A DNA stretch of 64,000 nucleotides, from positions 57,536,001 to 57,600,000 of the forward strand of contig OZ024745.1 of the NCBI GenBank assembly GCA_964016885.1. The letters run 5' to 3'. Shown here in pieces: positions 9,003 through 55,200 of the stretch. The notes under the pieces were generated by a model. That model had not been told where the DNA came from, searched no databases, and worked only from the letters and a program-made list of their open reading frames with translations. The first letter of the stretch is position 1; every line of letters starts with the position of its first letter. This DNA is from Eledone cirrhosa (lineage: Eukaryota). The translations under genes were made by a program, and so were the position numbers.

Positions 9003-11226
9003 ATGGAATTCTTTAAGATCTCTTCTTCTCTAAAAGACATACCTCTACCTAGGAACAAAGATTTTATTAAACAATTAATAGAAAAATCAGACTCTTTTAT
9101 AAGAAAAATCAGGTGGCGTGCTTTCCACTTTGATAAATCTAATCTAAATGAAAATGTTTCAGATTTGGATAAAATTTTCAAATCTTAAAAAAATCCACCC
9201 CCCAACAAACTACTAATGGATTTTGAAAACGATATAATTTCTATCATCCAAGGCATCAAATTCAAGAGAAACTTCAAAGGCTAGGACTACTTAAGATGCA
9301 TTAAGGATAATATTGAAAGATTGGAAAAAACAGAGAAAATCTTAGTGAAATCGGACAAAACTAATAACCTTTATGGAGTACAAAAGGACATGTATAACGG
9401 CCTTATACTGAAAGAACTAAGGAAAAAGTACAAGATAGCAAGTAAGGACGAACTGGAAAAAATGAATACAGAGGCATCTTGTATAATGCATGAATTAGAC
9501 ATTGAGAATAAAACACAACCCTTCATGCCTAGGAAACCCAAGATCAATATGAAAGATCACAAAGGAAACTTTGAAAATGATTTGCCAGTCAGATTGATTA
9601 CACCATCAAAATCTGACCTGGGAAAACTTAGCAAAAACATTCTAGACAGGGTAATACAACAAATTAAAAACTTACATAATTTTCCTTACTTAAAGTTATG
9701 GAAGGGGACTGGTGAGGTTATTGAGTGGTTTAAAGAAATTAAATATAACTATAATAAGTTTATTCAGCTGGATATTGCTAACTACTATTCATCTATCACT
9801 CCTAATCTACTGAATAAGGCACTAAATTACGCATTTAAACATACTGACCTAACTAGCAATGAAATGCACATTATATTATCGGCAAGGAAAACATTGATAG
9901 AATTTAATAACCAACTATGGACTAGGGCAGATAGAGATAATAATTTCGACATAACTATGGGATCATCAGACTCAGCTCAGGTAACGGACCTTGTGGGCCT
10001 ATTTATAATTAATTCGCTACATAGAAAAATACCAGGTGTAACCGGAGGATTATATCGTGATGACATGATTTTACTTATTGAAAATAATAGCTGTGAACTA
10101 AATAGAAAAAGAAAACAAATTATACAATTTTTTAATTACCTTAATCTAAAAATAGAAATAGAGAATAAACATAGAATAGTCAATTTTCTGGATGTAACAC
10201 TAAATCTCAACACATGTCTTCATTATCCATTTCACAAACTAAATGAGAACTTGAATTATGTCAATTTTAACTCTAATCACCCCAGATCTGTTAAAAATAC
10301 TATAGTGAACTCTGTTCAAGAACGAATTTCAAGAATTTCATCTAATAAAAATATTTTTGATGAAAAAGTGCAGTATTACAATGAAGCGTTAGCTAGAGCA
10401 GGATATAGAGATAAAATTAAATACATCGATAATAATAATAAGCAAACTAACCAAAATAATAACAATTTTAATTACGGTAACAACTTTAACAACTATAATA
10501 GAAAACATTACAATAATTCCAAAAGCCGAAAAAGAAATAGAACTAGAAATATATTATGGTTTGCCCCCCCCCCTTCTCACTAAATATTAAAACCCATATT
10601 GCTAAACTATTCTTTAATGCTCTTGACAAACGCTTCCCTAGAACACATAAATATCACTCAATTTTTAATAGACACACTATAAAATTAACTTACTCGTCCA
10701 CCAAAAATTTAGCACAAAATGTTAACAGAATTAATAATAGGAATTTAAAACCTAACCAAAATACCAATAATCACCTAAACAATATTCAATTAAATAACTG
10801 TAACTGTAGAAATAAATCTAACTGTCAGTTAAATAACAACTGCTTAGCTAAAAATGTAGTGTACAATTGTAATGTTAAAACTAATTTAAATGCTTTCAAC
10901 TATGTTGGTTCCACCTCGACAGAATTTAAACTTCGCTTCAATAATCATAAGAATTCTTTCACAGATCCAAACAAAAAATCCTCAACTTCGCTATCTAGCT
11001 TACTCTGGCACCTTAAACGAGATAATGTTAAATATTCGATGATTTGGAATATCGTTTCAAAGGTATTCCTTTTAATTCCTCTTCAGAGAGTTGTGATCTT
11101 TGTATAGAAGAAATATTCTTTATATTAAAGTCCAAAAATTCCCTTAATTTAAGGAGCAATTTATTCAGTTGCTGCAGACATAGATTGAACTCAACGTTTA
11201 AATATAAATATAAATTTAAAATGTAG
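9003..11226 (+). pseudogene. PLE polyprotein (RT + C-terminal GIY-YIG endonuclease), disrupted
   Basis: Motifs KSDKTNNLY, KDHKGNF..RLITPSKS, LDIANYYSSI, FDITMGS.DSAQVTDLVG, GLYRDD, FLDVTL, WFAPP, CNCR..C....C, NVVY/YVGST..FKLRFNNH, CDLCIEE, CCRH. In-frame TAA (9186) and TAG (9282); frameshifts near 10570 and 11065. Confidence 0.93.
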
Positions 11227-32822: not shown

Positions 32823-33544
32823 CCAGACACTTTAATATGCAGCATTAATATAGCTAGCATTAATGTGTGAATTTGACACATAATTATATTCCTAGGGACA
32901 CATAATATATTCGTTTCCATTTTCTATGTTGTTATAGGTCACTTTATAATTTATAGTTGCGGCAAGGTGTGGAATTAAGAGTCACATTCGTTCTCAAGTT
33001 AAGAAAATAATAACAGGAAATAATGAAAGTACAATTACATAGTTGTTAATTGCCCGATGCATTTTTGAAATATGTGACAACTTCTACTTTGAACAAATTA
33101 TTAAATATAACGTAAAAGAGAAACTATTATATTATGTTTTAGCTTTGAATAGGGAATGAACTACTGTTGCTCTTGACGAATTGGATTACGTGTGGTCGAT
33201 AAGTAGAATGGCTTACAGTTGCAGTAAATTCCATGATAGGCTTTTGATTAAAATATTTCATTTATTCTCTTCGCTCGCTCTTCAAGCCAATGCATTAACA
33301 TCTTGAATATTCCAATGAAATTTATCAGTGAACATTTTGTAAAAGTAAATATGAAATGTATTTTTTCCTTCTTTAATAACGAACATTAAAAGCACAATTG
33401 TTAAAATCTTCTTCAACACTATCATCAATCATTCTCATAATCTTCCAAAATTATGAGCAACTTCTTCGTTATAAGATACGTACAAAAACAATACTATAGT
33501 AGTCAACTTCGGAACTTCTTTATTTTGCTTTTCATACACATCGG

Positions 33545-33750
33545 CATCATGATCTTATCGGCTGCGACGTATAAGACATCATCATGGTCATCATGATGTT
33601 TATTATCATTATCATCCTCTTCACCAACATAGTCGACATCATCATCATTATCATAATCATCATCGTCGACATCATCATCATCATTATCCTCATCATCAGC
33701 GTTATTATCATTATATTTATCGCCAAGTAGCTTATCATCATCAATCATAA
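33545..33750. repeat. Degenerate (CAT)n tract
   Basis: catcatcat runs; source of the poly-Asp and poly-Met ORFs. Confidence 0.8.
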
Positions 33751-33865
33751 AAAAAGATATTGCTCTATTGGAAGTTCTTCGCATTAACAGACAAATAATA
33801 TCTGATCATCTAATTATTGATACTGTTTTGTGCTGTTACAAAATATAAGCTATGATCTCAACAAT

Positions 33866-34135
33866 TTCTATAGGACTAGAACTGTTTCATTCTTTAGAAA
33901 TCATCAGGAATCTGGCTTTCCAGAATAAATGTTGTGGTATTTATAACTTTTCAGGTGGTAGGAGAGGTGGGGAGTGGGATGGGTGGAGGTCATTGGTTGA
34001 AAGAAAAGGGAATTCATTAAAAGCTAATTCTTTAAGGCTATAATTTATATTTAGAGTGACAAAGGCAGAAAGAATTCTATAAACAAGTTCAGATTCGGGT
34101 ACCAATCCTTATTTTCAAGTTTCTCTTAAGCTAAC
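33866..34135 (-). repeat. ~270 bp HHR-bearing element; left member of an inverted pair with 35658-35930
   Basis: Reverse complement matches 35658-35930 with scattered substitutions. Confidence 0.85.
33874..33912 (-). ncRNA. Minimal HHR-like motif
   Basis: gattc-CTGATGA-t ttc taaa gaa t-GAAA-cagt-TC-tagtc; stem I imperfect. The partner copy (35882-35920) has CTGATAA and AAAA and looks inactivated. Confidence 0.55.
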
Positions 34136-34453
34136 AATGCCTATATTTCAGGTGTCTATAAAAGCTTCACGGTACAGGCATTGCTTTATATCTGGAGATC
34201 TCCCTGCACTTGTCGTCGCATGGAACCATGGGCCCAGCAATATATGTCAATAATTGTCACAAGTTTACTGTTTGTACCAGAGTTTTCAAGTCGCTGACTG
34301 GACTAAAAAGTCACACTCGTTCAGCACATTGGTAGGGGTTCTCCTACATGGATATAAAGTAGTGGCCGTACTCGGAAACGAGTTGGCAGCCGCCATGTGT
34401 ATATATATACGGTATTTTCCGTAGTATTGTAATATAAATATTACACACAGTAG

Positions 34454-34456
34454 ATG

Positions 34457-34505
<49 letters not shown>

Positions 34506-34506
34506 G

Positions 34507-34601
<95 letters not shown>

Positions 34602-34620
34602 GTATATATGTATATATATG

Positions 34621-34669
<49 letters not shown>

Positions 34670-34698
34670 GTATATATGTATATATATATGTACGTGTG

Positions 34699-34736
<38 letters not shown>

Positions 34737-34834
34737 GATATATATATATTATATATATGTATGTGTGTATATATGTATATATATATATATATATACATAG
34801 ATATATATATATATTATATATATGTATGTGTGTA

Positions 34835-34903
<69 letters not shown>

Positions 34904-34995
34904 CTGTATGTGTATTTATGTATATTATATATTTGTATATATGTGTATTTCTGTAGATGTGTTTGTATATGTTTGTATATGTGTATATTTATATG

Positions 34996-35078
<83 letters not shown>
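34454..35078. repeat. Long (TA)n/(TATG) microsatellite
   Basis: About 620 bp of TA-based repeat. Confidence 0.95.
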
Positions 35079-35079
<1 letters not shown>

Positions 35080-35632
35080 AGTACGTACACGTACATACAT
35101 ATATGTATACAGACGTACAGTAGTGTGTATATATATATACATACATGCACACATATATATATGTACGTATGGATTCACCGAACATTTATTATAATGCTCG
35201 GTATGTTTGTAAACAAATATCCCGTATTAAACCGTAGTGTCTAGCAACCATCGTTGCTCGTTTGTTCAATACTGACAAAGGAACGCTGTACTAGTTTCAA
35301 GCTTATTAGCTATCGTCAGCAAAGTATACCTTCCTGCAGATTGTTGAACGTATATACTTACCTTATGCATGTTAACGGCTGAGTAGCTCAATTTGCATAT
35401 CGAGTGGGTTAATCGGCCGGGTGCAGCGAAAACGATAAACGGAAAAAATGAAACTAAATTTCATTTCCCACTCTTAGTACGGCTGTTACTTAAATATAAG
35501 TATGTACACGTACATACATATATGTATACAGACCTACAGTAGTATGTATATATACATGCACACCTATATATATATGTACGTATGGATTCACCCAACATTT
35601 ATTATAATGCTCGGTGTGTTTGTAAACAAACA
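35079..35632 (-). mobile_element. Retrozyme-like element: ~419 bp monomer plus a partial second copy, with HHR
   Basis: Direct repeat 35079-35218 / 35498-35630 (period 419). HHR at 35284-35324; no recognisable coding content; abuts (TA)n. Confidence 0.65.
35284..35324 (-). ncRNA. Minimal type I HHR
   Basis: ctttg-CTGACGA-t agct aata agct t-GAAA-ctag-TA-cagcg; palindromic stem III ACTAGT. Confidence 0.8.
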
Positions 35633-35657
35633 ACCTGTGCCAAAAATAGAAACAATT

Positions 35658-35930
35658 ATTAGCTTAAGAGAAACTTAAAAATAAGAATTGGCACCCGAAT
35701 CTGAACTTGTTTATAGAATTCTTTCTGCCTTTGTCACTCTAAATAAAAATTATAGCCTTAAAGAATTAGCTTTTAATGAATTCCCTTTTCTTTCAACCAA
35801 TGACCTCCACCCATCCCACTCCCCACCCTCCCATACCACCTGAAAAGATATAAGTACCACAGCATTTAATTTGGAAAGCCAGATTCCTGATAATTTCTAA
35901 AGAATAAAACAGTTCTAGTCCTGTAGAATC
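35658..35930 (+). repeat. ~270 bp element; right member of an inverted pair with 33866-34135
   Basis: Reverse-complement match to the partner; immediately preceded by a SINE A 3'-end scrap (gtgccaaaaatagaaacaatt). Confidence 0.85.
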
Positions 35931-36060
35931 TCATCTATATTAAAACTTTTATACTGTGCTATGTATTTAGTACCTTACTGTGGTTACCTCCGAATCAACC
36001 CGGAATAACTTACCTATATATATATAATACCTATGTATATATAATACATATATATATATA

Positions 36061-36431
36061 TAATAAGGATCGACGGACTCAGCATATTTATCAATGCAAG
36101 TACCGGTTGTATCTCAGTGCACTCAATGGGCAATGTAAGATACATTACTAGAATATACACATAGTTATTTGCCTCAACACAACACACGTAAAACGGGTGC
36201 CTATAAGGTACCCGGATTCGAGTTTCTGCCGCACTAATGCAGCAGTAAGGTGCACTGCACCAGTTGTCTGCATATATTATGCAACAATGCACAATTGGCT
36301 TATGCGGCTTCATCAGCGGGTATCGCCTAATCAATAAGCAATCGATCGACAGAATCCAAACACCGGCCCATGCCGGTCATGACTGTATGTAACAACCGAC
36401 ACGGTAAAGCGTTTAGCAACTGGCACCCGAT
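36061..36431 (-). mobile_element. ~365 bp non-coding HHR-bearing element (family B), copy 2
   Basis: Reverse-complement match to 5677-6042; 3' end runs into (TA)n. Confidence 0.85.
36209..36322 (-). ncRNA. Type I HHR with extended, branched stem II
   Basis: tacccg-CTGATGA-agccgca...tgcggca-GAAA-ctcgaa-TC-cgggta; perfect 6-bp stem I and intact core. Confidence 0.85.
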
Positions 36432-36700
36432 AGGACTATCTCTCAACTAGCCACTGATTTACAAATTTTACGTGGGGACGGGAAGCTAAAAAGAATGAAT
36501 CTTTTAGTTCCTGTCAGAAGCGCTCAGCCAACGTGTCTCACACACAATTTATCAAGGGGTGAAAAGATGGCTATTAGAAATAGCAGTGTGTATGGATATA
36601 AAATAGAACGGTAGCATTCGGTTCATGTCTCCAAGCCCCATGGCTAGAGGAAAGCGATGGTAGCAATGGTAGTGCCAAGAACATATATGATATGTATATA

Positions 36701-36797
<97 letters not shown>

Positions 36798-36889
36798 ATA
36801 TACACACACTCCTTACTATCATTGCAATCATATTTCTACTGGCTTCCTTTTCTCATTGTATTTGTATATAAACAATTACACAGGTACAA

Positions 36890-37450
36890 TGAGAAGGGGA
36901 GGGCAAGGAGGAGAGGAGAGTAAGGAGAAAAGGAGAGCAAGAAAAAAGGAGACCAAAGAGAGGGATGGGAGTAAGGCGAAAAGGAGACCAAGGAGAGCAA
37001 GGTGGAAAGGAGAGCTATGAGAAAATGAGAGAAAGGAGAGCAAGGAAAGCAAGGAGAGCAATGAGAGGAAGGAGAAAACAGAGCAGGGAGAGCAAGGAGA
37101 GCAAGGAGAGCAAGGAGAAAATGAGAGTAAGGAGAGCAATGCGAAAAGGAGACCAAGGAGAGAGGGAGAGCAAGGAGAGCAATGAGTAAGAAGGGCAAGT
37201 AGAAAAGGAGAGCAAGGAGGAAAGGAGACCAAGGAGAAAATGAGGGCAATGAGAGCAAGGAGAGCAAGGACAGCAAGGAGAGAAAAACTGGGAGGAGGGC
37301 AGTGGAAAGTGTGGGAATAGAGATACAAGAGGAGGAAAGGGGTGGAAATGGAGGTAGGAGAAGAAGGGGTATAAGTTGAGGTACTGGAGGATGGGGAGGG
37401 TGAGGTAGAGGAGGAAGGAGAAGGGGAGGAATTGGATGATGAGCAGGGGA
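36890..37450. repeat. Purine-rich degenerate 9-mer minisatellite (ggagagcaa)
   Basis: Repeated ggagagcaa/ggagaccaa units with strong AG strand bias. Confidence 0.8.
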
Positions 37451-37551
37451 GGAACATATAGTGAAAATGCATTAAATATATTCCAAAGCCTTCGTTTTGA
37501 ATTCTTTTTTCTTAGCTTATATTAGTTATACTCTGTATCTGATTATCGATT

Positions 37552-37740
37552 GGTGGATTGGCAGTATCGGTAGAGAGTCGGACACCATGCTTTGAAGCAT
37601 AGAATTACGTCCCTTTATGATCTGAGTTCAAATCCCGCCGCAGTTAACTTTGCCTTTCATCCTTACGGGGTCAATAAATTAAAGTACCAGTAATACACTG
37701 GGTAATTACTGGCCTTGTGCCAAAAGTAGAAACAATTATT
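37552..37740 (+). mobile_element. tRNA-derived SINE family A
   Basis: A/B boxes, conserved body and tail. Confidence 0.9.
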
Positions 37741-38347
37741 TGAAATATAACCTCTACTATCAAAGATAACAAATTATATATATACTGTGTAGGAATGTTT
37801 CAAACATATGATTATAATTATTGCAATTGTGTACGTATTTTGTTCGGTATTAGACATATGAATCAGAACATGATATCATCTGATAAATAAGGATCTATAT
37901 GACGTTATCTAATTCTATATTTTTTAATTTTTATTTCACATTATCATGTCAATGTCCTCCTGAAATTGGTATTAATATAACAAAAATCATCAATACACTT
38001 TGTAGAGTTCAAAGATATTCTAAGTAGATTACGTTGTAATCACATGCAGATTAAATAAATACGTTAACGTGTCCCTTTGATTATTTGTTTTGAAATACAT
38101 TCTATAGAATACCAGGGTTGAAATGAATATTTACATGAATATGGAATCAAATGAATATTGATTTTGAGTGTATAATTAATTAATTGTAGATTATTTAAAA
38201 AAATCTGAATAAAATCATTAATAAACATTAAGTATATGTTTCCCAGCACCAAACATATTCTGCACACACAAACTTTGAATCAAATAAATTTTGTTTCTGC
38301 TCATGCATATTCTTGTTAAGCTGAATCGAGTGTATTTATATTAATAA

Positions 38348-40531: not shown

Positions 40532-40773
40532 CTTTTTTTATGGTTAATTTAAATGCAGGAGTAAAGAAAGCACATCATGAATATGAAATATAGGTCACCT
40601 AAATGGATACAGATACATCCAAGATATACTATACTTAATGGAATCTTCACATATAAGTACAATTATATTGATTAATTATTGATCATATGGTATCGGTGAC
40701 AATATCGTAAAAGAGATTGACAGCGTAAAATTGTTTCGAATAGCACATGGTGTGAAACCAACTAACATATTAA

Positions 40774-41369
40774 GGGCAGTGGATTGGCAGTATCGGTAGA
40801 GGGTCGGACGCCATGCTTTGACGCATATAGTTACGGCCCTTGGTATTCTGAGTTCAAATCCCGCCAAGGTTAACTTTGCCTTTCATCCTTATGGGGTCGA
40901 TAAAATAAAGTACCAGTAATACACTGGTTATTGCTGGCCTTGTGCCAACAGTAGAAACAATTATTAAGCATATTAAGGGCGGTGAATTGGCAGTATCGGT
41001 AGAGGGTCGGACGCCATGCTTTCCAGTATAGTTACGTCCCTTTAAGGTCTGAGTTCAAATCCCGTCGAGGTTAACTTTCCCTTTCATCCTTACGGGGTCG
41101 ATAAAATAAAGTACCAGTAATGTACTGGGTATTTGCTGGCCTTGTGCCAAAAGTAGAAACAACTATTTCTACAGAAAATAGGTGGATTGGCAGTATCGGT
41201 AGAGGGTCGAATGTCATGCTTTGACGCATAGAATTACGGCCCTTGCCATTCTGAGTTCAAATCCCGCCGAGGTTAACTTTGCCTTTTATCCTTACGGGGT
41301 CGATAAAATAAAGTACCAGTAATTCACTGGTTAATTGCTTGTCTTGTGCGAAAAGTTGAAACTATTATT
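40774..41369 (+). mobile_element. Three head-to-tail SINE family A copies
   Basis: Copies at ~40774-40964, 40977-41168 and 41181-41369. Confidence 0.9.
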
Positions 41370-41559
41370 AAGCATATTATGCCATCCATGTGACGTAAAA
41401 TAATTTCAAGTAGTCTGAAATATTTTGCCAGATTGGAAATTCATGATCATAGTAAAATTAAATTGTCTCATTTACACTTTGTATGTATACACTTAAAACA
41501 AACACGCATTCACACATACTCGCATACTTGTATGTAAACAGACACACACACACACATAT

Positions 41560-52782: not shown

Positions 52783-54668
52783 CTTCTCGATTTAGTCGCT
52801 AACATTTCCTTTCGCAAACACACTAACACCTTTCAAATGAAATTCAGATATGATATTAAGAAATTTAGGTCTTCTAATAACACCTTCGTTCTTTCCGACA
52901 AAACTAATAATATTTACGAAGTCGACAACACCACTTTCCGCCACCTGGCCCAATACGCTATTACTTCTAAATATAAGAAAACTAACCCTATGGCCTACCA
53001 CGACATTAATACAGAAGCCAAGGAACATGCCGCCGACGTTAAGGTAGATAAAAAGCTACAATCTCTAGCTAAGCGGGAGGCGTTCCTCGCCCTGAAAGTT
53101 CACAAGGTAGACTTTACTTCTAACCCCACATGTAGACTAATAAACCCGGCACGCACATATATGGGACTAGTCAGTAAGTCCATACTTAGAAACATAGTTA
53201 AGACCATTAGGACCAAGTCCAACCTACCCCAGTGGGAGAACAGCGACTCCGTAATTAAGTGGTTTAACTCCTTAAAATCCCAAAAAGCGAATTTCACATA
53301 GTTCGACATTGTCGATTTTTACCCGTCTATCTCAGAGAACCTGTTAAACAAAGCGTTGGACTTTACTACCACTTATATCACCGTCGATGGTTTAGACGGG
53401 GAAACCATCGCTCACTACCGGAAAACCTTCCTCTTCAACGACGGAGTAGCCTGGACAAAGAAGTCTACAACTTCAGACCTATTCGACGTCTCCATGGGAT
53501 CGTTTGACAGTGCTGACGTATGTGAGTTGGTTGGCATATTTATCTTAGACATATTGCGTGTTAAATTCCCGGACTTCCACACGGGAATATACCGCGACGA
53601 TGGACTGACTCTATCGAGCCATAATAGTGGTCACGACCTCGACCGGTTTAAAAAAGACTTAGCTTCTACCTTCAATGAGTTAGGACTTAGGATAAGAGTA
53701 GCCACCAACCTCTCTCGCGTAGATTTCTTAGACATTAATTTAGACCTTCGCACACACACACACATACCCTTCCATAAGCTAAACGAGAAGCTCAATTACA
53801 TTCACAAGGACTCATGCGACCCTCCCACTGTTTTTAGAAACTTCGATAAGAATATCATTACTAGGATCTCAAACCTCTCCTCTAATAAGGCTATCTTTGA
53901 CAGGGCGGCACCCTACTATAACACGGTGTTGGCTAACAGCGGCCTCTCACAACCTATCACTTACTCTCCAACTAGCAACACCGCCATTAAAAAAAGTAAG
54001 CGCAACAATAGACAAACTATCTGGTTCTCTCCTCCCTTCTTACTCAACGTTAAAACCAATGTAGGAAAACAATTGCTAGCCCTCTTAGATAGACACTTCC
54101 CCATAGGTCATAAATACCGATCCATCTTTAACTGACACAAAGTTAAACTAGGATACTCCTGCGCTAAGAACATGAAGGCCCACTTCACCAGAAGCCCTAG
54201 GAGCAACACCCACCAGGGTGCTCTTGCCGTAAGCCTGAAGCTTGCCCCCTTCAACAGCAATGCAACACACAAGCTGTAATTTATGAAGCTGTGGTCACTT
54301 CCAACCGACCAAACGAACCACAGGAGGTCAAATCCTACGTGGGCATGGCGGAGGGCCGATTTAAGGAACGTTTCCTGAACCACTAGTCTACCTTCAGGTA
54401 CCCGGACAAACGTTCATCCACGAAACTCGCGAGCCACGTATGGCCCCTCAAGGACTCAAGTATAGACTACTCCATTCAATGGAAAGCCATCACTAAGTAC
54501 AAGCCATACGCAAGGGGAAATCCGACGTTTGGCTTATGTATTGACGAACGAATAACTATTCTAAAGAGGTTACGCAATAGTGATTGCCTAAACACGAGGA
54601 ATGAATTTTTCAGACGTTGTCCACACGTTGCCAAACACATATTGCATAACTACAAGGCTCCGGAATGA
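52783..54668 (+). pseudogene. PLE RT + GIY-YIG polyprotein, disrupted
   Basis: SDKTNNIY, LKVHKVDFTSNPTCRLINPA, FDIVDFYPSI, FDVSMGSFDSADVCELVG, GIYRDDGL, FLDINL, WFSPPF..NVKTNVGK, CSCR..CP, YVGMAEGRFKERFLNH, LNTRNEFFRRCPH. Stops at 53299, 54133 and ~54384, plus frameshifts. Confidence 0.92.
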
Positions 54669-54825
54669 TTCTTTGTAATTTTATTTTCAACCTAAAAGCA
54701 TTTCGGACTTTCGCAGTTATCTCCCTTACACCTCTTGCACGCAGTCTAGTATTGCCTGTGTGAAGTGACCGGGTTTATGCGCATGCGCGTTCGTACGGTT
54801 GTCCTTCCTGTTCCTATAACCATGC

Positions 54826-54875
54826 CCATTCCGAGCTGATGATCCGCTAAGGTGAAACAATTTTTCTCGGTATGG
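54826..54875 (+). ncRNA. Minimal type I HHR in the pLTR
   Basis: ccat.ccgag-CTGATGA-t cc gctaa gg t-GAAA-caattt-TT-ctcgg.atgg; stem III probably carries one mutation. Confidence 0.75.
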
Positions 54876-55200
54876 TGAACTAATTGTTGTGTAACCATTT
54901 CTACCTAACACGTCCCATGGACTGAGTGCTCTACCACTACGGATATTACCTTCCAGTGTTCCACCATTATATATATATATATATATCGTTTCACGCATAT
55001 ACGAGTGTGTATATATTTGTGGAATATTTTCTTCGTTTCGAAACTGAGTTGGCGTTAAATGTAAGCATTACAGAGGTTAAAAGCTTTTTTGGCATTGAAA
55101 TACATATATTTACATTTAACACGGACCACATTTAATATGGTGTATCAAAAGTATACATATGTATATGTGCGTCCTTACTTATGTGTCTGCAAATCAACAT

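Follow-up and report, generated by a model that had tools for sequence, protein, structure and literature searches.

Introduction

The closest described counterparts of the element analyzed here are the non-LTR retrozymes of metazoans, whose unit range is given as 150–450 bp in PMC7229834 and as 51–972 bp in bioRxiv 10.64898/2026.07.22.740005. Ligation by an RtcB-type ligase was shown in vitro for other retrozymes in the experiments of PMC7229834, and PMC7761336 states that retrozymes seem to lack promoters, their arrays being transcribed by read-through. Two kinds of motif are described in PMC4209133: the canonical metazoan type I hammerhead, with a helix I of 6 bp, a helix II of 4 bp and a helix III of 1–2 bp closed by a palindromic loop of 2–4 nt, and the minimal motif of Penelope-like elements (PLEs), with little or no helix III, a helix II of 7–8 bp and a helix I of 4–5 bp. 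Among the marks of PLE insertion listed in PMC8557442 are inverted and 5'-truncated copies, a tail that often stands at one end only, and a bias towards (TA)n and other microsatellites. A purified PLE enzyme, predicted to act as a dimer, cuts and extends both strands, and its reverse transcription starts at two internal sites that bound the tail (PMC11167929). Finally, the hammerhead satellites of newt and schistosome are reported in PMC2220036 to be driven by promoters of different kinds, of the snRNA-type Pol II class in the newt and of the Pol III class in the schistosome. Our literature searches returned no paper on cephalopod retrozymes or on U6-type retrozyme promoters, with the reservation that supplements may list cephalopod hammerheads; in PMC5680766 the word "promoter" is absent.

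The window analyzed here is a stretch of 64,000 nucleotides from Eledone cirrhosa (contig OZ024745.1 of assembly GCA_964016885.1, positions 57,536,001–57,600,000). Our preferred reading, to which we give a probability of about 0.7, is that its retrozyme copy is truncated and likely inactive, and that it belongs to a very abundant family of non-coding hammerhead retroelements, likely copied into TA microsatellites by a PLE enzyme and likely transcribed from a built-in U6-type promoter. Directly supported are the copy number, the tandem and back-to-back arrays, the conserved hammerhead fold, the pair of fixed 3'-end sites, of which each arm uses a different one, and the sequence identity of the box with that of host type-3 Pol III genes.

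Anatomy of the window copy

The window copy consists of approximately 1.35 units of a non-coding repeat at positions 35079–35638 of the minus strand. In the following list, site 1 designates the unit end and site 2 lies at unit position ~55–63.

35079–35638, minus strand: whole insertion, 5'-truncated and one-armed, with its 3' end at site 1 (the unit end), followed by (TA)n
35498–35638, minus strand: 5' partial unit, unit positions ~273–419
35079–35497, minus strand: full unit, 419 bp in the window copy (420–422 bp in the family)
35435–35497, minus strand: tail, between the two preferred 3'-end sites, with predicted hairpins; loose ends into TA at 35435
35443–35448, minus strand: T6 run within the tail, a putative Pol III terminator
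35382–35399, minus strand: upstream box, with ATGCAAAT at 35398–35391; 11 bits in the window copy
35350–35357, minus strand: TATA-like box, 41 bp past the first position of the upstream box; a transcription start set by the TATA is predicted near 35327
35272–35339, minus strand: canonical type I hammerhead with an extended helix I and a U.U at the base of helix II, predicted cut between 35289 and 35288
35323, minus strand: rare helix-I change giving a U.C mismatch, found in 2% of loci
35093–35173, minus strand: purine-pyrimidine (TA/CA-rich) long hairpin of the unit, of variable length
34457–35077, no strand: (TA)n target tract, adjoining the insertion on its 3' side

The sequence-only reading had described direct repeats of ~135 bp placed 419 bp apart in an element reaching 35632. 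The repeats are real: aligned with each other, 35079–35225 and 35498–35638 are identical in 131 of 139 columns, and two indels fall in their TA-rich part. They measure 141–147 bp, though, are offset by 419 on the 3' side but by 413 on the 5' side, and belong to an element that starts at 35638. Its 419-bp monomer agrees with the window unit, but not with the family unit of 420–422 bp. On the other hand, the entry of the 3' end into (TA)n was correctly seen, as was the lack of coding content: on a trimer, no M-to-stop frame is longer than 47 aa. The hammerhead string with its palindromic stem III is found as it had been quoted, on the minus strand and with the predicted cut listed above: CUGACGA occupies 35319–35313, helix II 35312–35299, GAAA 35298–35295 and the palindromic helix III 35295–35290. 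The term "minimal" does not apply to it; the helix I of 6 bp, the helix II of 4 bp plus a U.U, the helix III of 2 bp and the palindromic loop are those of a canonical type I motif. A scan of 33000–38000 against Rfam did not find the hammerhead, and returned only microsatellite-driven matches of miRNA type.

The window copy differs from the family majority at 10 of 337 scored positions. At 35323 the family base makes up ~99% of the depth in three sequencing runs, all from one sample that is possibly the assembly's own. Judged by its single ribozyme and its helix-I mismatch, the copy is likely dead; since it has only one ribozyme, excision of a monomer by itself is impossible.

Neighbouring elements

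The retrozyme is bracketed by the inverted arms of another hammerhead family, family E, for which the search gave 6,633 candidates. Its left arm (33866–34160, minus strand) has no tail and an intact core at 33907, and its right arm (35655–36013, plus strand) has a tail and a mutated core. This flanking inverted repeat was considered as a partner of the retrozyme and rejected, as it is a separate hammerhead family. Positions 34161–34409 of the plus strand hold what is likely the 3' end of a LINE, with a short frame ending in a zinc-finger-like motif and a TA tail that forms the tract entered by the retrozyme. Between the 5' end of the retrozyme and family E lies a 25-bp piece (35636–35660) of a SINE-like repeat of ~200 bp that also occurs at 37716–37740 and 40766–41379; the piece is perhaps filler from a template switch. 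Other families contribute at least seven more hammerhead-like cores to the window (8699, 8766, 11086, 12662, 13776, 54836 and 57398).

Size and subfamilies of the family

The assembly searched comprises 3.0 Gb. A 34-letter pattern of the ribozyme core has 11,847 and 11,215 exact matches on the two strands, 23,062 in total, and its reversed control has none; the window copy lacks the exact core pattern because of its rare change, and the total is therefore a lower bound. With this number of matches on many chromosomes, the possibility of a single-copy element, by which the sequence-only reading would have fallen, does not hold. A DNA search gave 2,425 candidates, 40 of which were scored, with identities of 95–100% and locations on many chromosomes. 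The copies are dispersed, tandem and back-to-back, with up to 7 full units on one arm, and arrays with a spacing of 420–424 bp were among the results of the genome DNA search.

Four subfamilies can be distinguished: A, to which the window copy belongs (~420 bp), B (~430 bp, ~85% identical), C (456–516 bp, ~72% identical) and the remote D (~466 bp). Most A and B units measure 416–441 bp, C units 456–516 bp and D units 465–474 bp, and 62 distinct cut-to-cut units were recovered from the family. The coding test, performed on trimers of subfamily A, gave longest M-to-stop frames of 47–51 aa. Circles predicted for six units are 62–71% paired, with z-scores of −5.4 to −10.3 against 40 shuffles each, and the GC content of the units is 0.36–0.38. 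The ragged 5' ends together with the pure unit arrays argue against an LTR structure. By the features testable from sequence the element is a non-LTR retrozyme, as had been proposed: a multi-copy family with tandem arrays and no ORF.

The hammerhead ribozyme

Helix I has 6 bp in the family and covaries across the four subfamilies. In an alignment of 15 hammerhead sequences 93.9% of the cells are paired, compared with 30–46% in slid controls, and 8 of 22 pairs are changed on both sides, one helix-I position showing four pair types, with the caveat that much of the covariation comes from one split (A–C vs. D) and that the shuffle control is inflated by related rows. Position 17 is A, U or C; G was never seen. 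The hammerhead is the best-conserved region scored, with 1.6% non-majority bases. By E-value, the best Rfam match of a family copy is HH9 (E 0.0045); its 20.5 bits fall short of the gathering score, which is 52. The family shows the canonical type I features of PMC4209133 and not those of the minimal PLE type. In most copies of subfamily D (L108–L127) the cut site reads GUU, in L110 GUC or similar, and a G-C pair stands at the place of the U.U of A–C. A U.U at the base of helix II is likewise present in HHR_Amex2 of the axolotl, which is described in PMC7229834 as cutting better as a dimer.

Insertion ends

The ends were analyzed in 55 distinct loci, obtained from the first 100 listed core matches of one chromosome after overlapping loci had been dropped; this sample is biased to copies with an intact core. 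Among the 98 arms uncut by the edge of a locus, 42 end at the tail (unit ~48–66), 41 at the unit end and 15 elsewhere. Thus 83 of 98 3' ends fall at two sites ~60 nt apart, neither of which is the ribozyme cut, and the freely permuted copies expected by the sequence-only reading are not what the family presents. Nearly all ends at the two sites enter (TA)n. The 5' starts are scattered, and in subfamily A none lies within 5 nt of the cut. Of the 98 arms, 40 are longer than 500 bp, 11 of them longer than 900 bp; the template was therefore longer than one unit or circular.

The two-armed insertions follow a stricter rule. From 33 complete head-to-head pairs, 32 distinct ones remained after removal of L223, a local duplicate: 22 combine a tail end with a unit end, none has both ends at the same site, and 10 have one other end; the lone "unit + unit" pair, L069, runs on for ~26 nt. 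If the two sites were chosen independently and evenly, 22 mixed pairs out of 22 would arise with a chance of ~2e-7. Less strict best-hit sets gave 16 mixed, 3 same-site and 13 other pairs.

Within an insertion, units diverge by 1.7% on the same arm and by 2.1% on opposite arms, and between loci by 4.3%. Rare variants are common to units in 31% (same arm) and 26% (opposite arms) of cases, vs. 1% between loci; the variants common to both arms come from only 9 of the 21 two-armed loci, L031 and the duplicated L223 supplying most of them. Long arrays may be nearly homogeneous across both arms, as in L031 (0.4–0.8%). As possible traces of A-to-I editing, which would point to an RNA template, A>G changes were counted: they make up 12 of 61 shared variants and 37 of 505 singletons (p 0.003). 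T>C, however, accounts for 8 of the shared variants, and several of the shared A>G changes are subfamily markers.

Relation to Penelope-like elements

The family bears the marks of PLE insertion, namely 5' truncation, inverted 5' arms, a one-ended tail and microsatellite targets, and the mobilization by PLEs put forward in the sequence-only reading is in agreement with them. From this insertion shape, on which the link rests, it is likely that a PLE enzyme copied the family into TA microsatellites. An autonomous partner sharing the unit or the tail was not found among the fetched loci, either by tblastn with PLE ORFs or by clustering of the flanks. None of 59 one-armed copies continues 5' into a shared RT + GIY-YIG ORF, which disposes of the constant attachment to a PLE ORF that had been named as a refutation. 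PLE-type ORFs are present at less than 1.5 kb from several copies, and in the window PLE-type RT/endonuclease ORF regions lie at ~9500–11100 and ~53000–54900. With the PLE-type ORFs, an Atlas search gave GIY-YIG clusters (look-alikes), and Pfam and PDB searches gave no match.

Four loci were considered as composite elements. L005, L200 and L215 were rejected as retrozyme–PLE units, their PLE ORFs being neighbours, and L216 was rejected as a chimera, being an insertion into a PLE ORF with a target duplication of ~8 bp; its junction has been recopied as an inverted arm (L216:4250–7080). As the retrozyme of L216 lies within a PLE ORF, PLEs can carry retrozymes as passengers.

The upstream box

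All four subfamilies keep the sequence ATGCAAATT(A/G)G upstream of the ribozyme, with a GTATA-type box 40–42 bp later. This distance is found in all 209 subfamily copies for which both boxes were scored (a count that takes in overlapping loci), and across subfamilies indels occur only just after the TATA. The same box is found at −76 to −79 in host U6, U6atac, MRP and tRNA-Sec genes. U6 genes at three separate loci have it at −76 to −78, with a TATA at −31, and it likewise stands ahead of the one RNase MRP gene and of the best U6atac gene. An 18-bp matrix built from five host genes recovered both true tRNA-Sec genes out of sample, with 26.0 and 21.8 bits. Subfamilies B, C and D score 19.9–20.3 bits with this matrix and two A units 11.0–11.3 bits, the 99th percentile of the background being 9.4 and one of 500 background tiles reaching 19.9 bits.

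The host genes have 45–47 bp between box and TATA (7 of 7), and the subfamilies fall 4–6 bp short of this spacing. The unit holds a run of T6 (A) or T7 (C) that would stop Pol III ahead of the next ribozyme, and the B unit tested has T4 only. The box lies inside a predicted hairpin stem; its strand is constant, and its pairing partner differs between A/B and C/D. Among A copies it has 4.1% non-majority bases vs. ~3% in its neighbours, and is no better conserved than these. In the host, the box is missing at its place in 15 of 19 distinct U6 upstream regions, at 7 of 8 U6atac loci and in the single RNase P gene. Most box-less U6 loci have altered 5' ends or TA flanks, and are read here as probable retrocopies; one has a SINE-like insert that splits the promoter. 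The U1, U2 and RNase P genes have no U6-type box and carry a different one. A U1/U2-type promoter in the unit was rejected, the corresponding matrix giving 3–4 bits vs. 13.5–15.8 bits in host genes.

Several observations concern the host genes themselves. U1 and U2 promoters (L143–L182) have a common TCAGT box at −56 to −58 and a TATA-like sequence near −33; a TATA therefore cannot tell Pol II snRNA genes from Pol III ones. RNase P RNA has a single gene (L241:1380–1500, G000:C24), whose upstream box is of the U1/U2 and not of the U6 type, which suggests transcription of RNase P RNA by Pol II in Eledone cirrhosa. In the U6 cluster (L134–L140, G000:C19) a SINE-like insert of ~190 bp stands at the TATA in several genes and has moved the upstream box to −270. 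Retrocopies of U6 and U6atac (L141, L185, L186, L234) lie within (TA)n tracts or the tail region of family E, and were possibly made by the same machinery as the retrozyme.

Proposed mechanism and alternatives

In the mechanism that we propose, transcription of an array might start ~38–55 nt ahead of the first cut, from the internal box and TATA, or else result from read-through; the internal start is a tentative step, with chances slightly below even. With a start set by the TATA as in U6 genes, the transcript would begin immediately before helix I. The hammerheads would very probably cut once per unit, presumably as dimers formed through the palindromic helix III, and the unit-length RNA would reasonably be expected to be closed into a circle by a host RtcB-type ligase. 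We are most confident of the last step, in which a dimer of the PLE RT-endonuclease would nick a (TA)n tract on its two strands; the DNA ends would each prime at one of the two sites flanking the tail and be extended round the template, to give two 5'-truncated head-to-head arms, or one arm as in the window. A linear template terminated by Pol III was rejected as sole source, as A-type tails end ~8 nt past the T6 and arms run through it.

The main alternative as regards the template retains the same element and the PLE machinery, and supposes an uncut linear multimer transcribed from genomic arrays, with the ribozyme as a passenger and no need of a circle. It agrees with the experiments reported in PMC11167929, where insertion by the purified PLE does not need the ribozyme, its mutants being without effect, and where unprocessed RNA is the main substrate; moreover, the absence of 5' ends at the cut is as compatible with uncut RNA as with a circle, and 12 of the 21 two-armed loci have no rare variant common to the arms. 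We nevertheless judge it unlikely, given that the hammerhead is the best-conserved region scored and covaries, that the L031 array is nearly homogeneous across both its arms, and that related retrozymes are abundant as circles in coral, mussel and axolotl, according to the data of PMC7229834. That the copies are solo or truncated pseudo-LTRs (pLTRs) of an autonomous Penelope-like element appears very improbable: the relationship of Xenopus retrozymes to pLTRs stated in bioRxiv 10.64898/2026.07.22.740005 and the closeness of PLE ORFs to several copies speak for it, but none of the 59 one-armed copies enters a shared ORF, and the four loci that came close are explained by neighbouring elements or, in L216, by insertion into a PLE ORF. 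Arrays made purely of units are also common, and the ribozyme has the canonical form, not the minimal one of pLTRs. Historically, the unit may nonetheless descend from a pLTR, as has been proposed for the retrozymes of Xenopus. A local duplication, or a DNA-level satellite with a chance hammerhead-like string, could be imagined from the TA/CA-rich nature of the repeated part and its microsatellite-rich surroundings; against the exact cores on both strands of many chromosomes, the fixed 3' and ragged 5' ends and the covariation, its probability is negligible.

The alternative that concerns the promoter is of another weight. The box may be retained because it binds a POU factor or belongs to an RNA hairpin, the arrays being transcribed by read-through, and to this explanation we attribute a chance not far below one half. 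The short spacing, the T6/T7 run in the unit, the predicted stem and the low score of subfamily A all favour it, as does the view of PMC7761336 that retrozymes seem promoterless. What opposes it is that the match exceeds an octamer, extending over an 18-bp matrix with ~20 bits in three subfamilies including the remote D, that the box strand does not vary although the strand it pairs with is different in A/B and in C/D, and that a TATA-like box stands at a fixed distance which would place the start just before the ribozyme. Taken by itself, the function of the box as a promoter is a possibility that we would put at a little less than evens. A broader and more speculative proposal, which we regard as rather doubtful, is that retrozymes are self-sufficient transcription units which captured the gene-external U6-type promoter of the host. 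They would retain it across retrotransposition only thanks to a circular template: copying over more than one turn rebuilds the promoter, the ribozyme and the next ribozyme. From its two fixed start sites, a PLE dimer would copy a single circle into the two ends of a break. If true, such self-sufficient retrozymes would overturn the promoterless view and explain why more-than-unit copies are the rule.

Comparison with known systems

The retrozyme class is known; what makes the Eledone family a variant is its host type-3 box and its strict use of two end sites. With the metazoan non-LTR retrozymes, as they are presented in PMC7229834, PMC7761336 and bioRxiv 10.64898/2026.07.22.740005, it shares non-coding tandem units of a few hundred bp, a GC content of 0.37, below 50%, a single canonical type I hammerhead in each unit, a highly paired predicted circle and coexistence with PLEs. 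It differs from them by its unit of 420–500 bp, its two fixed 3'-end sites, its two-armed insertions and its internal type-3 Pol III box; moreover, circles were observed in those systems and are predicted in the Eledone family. The comparison with EN+ PLEs (Poseidon PAc of Anolis, PMC11167929; PMC8557442) concerns the insertion process. Partial tandems, 5' truncation, inverted 5' arms, a one-ended tail, AT-rich or (TA)n targets and ends away from the ribozyme cut are common to both in the copies described there, whereas the Eledone unit has no ORF, a tail of ~55–63 nt vs. 30–40 in PLEs, and a canonical instead of a minimal hammerhead. With its thousands of young, short insertions, the family also makes the integration of PLEs testable: the use of one site per DNA end, out of the two internal RT starts observed in vitro, predicts a dimer acting on one template.

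As for transcription, newt satellite 2 and the schistosome satellite, in the works cited by PMC2220036, are likewise hammerhead tandem repeats with internal promoters; unlike in these, the Eledone box is of the host U6/U6atac/MRP/tRNA-Sec type, not U1/U2, and is a candidate promoter. It resembles the host type-3 Pol III promoters in having the same upstream box followed by a GTATA-type TATA, and departs from them in its spacing of 40–42 bp vs. 45–47 bp and in its location inside the repeated unit, not outside the transcript. With a type-3 Pol III box just ahead of the ribozyme in four subfamilies, the family makes retrozyme transcription testable against the read-through model as formulated in PMC7761336.
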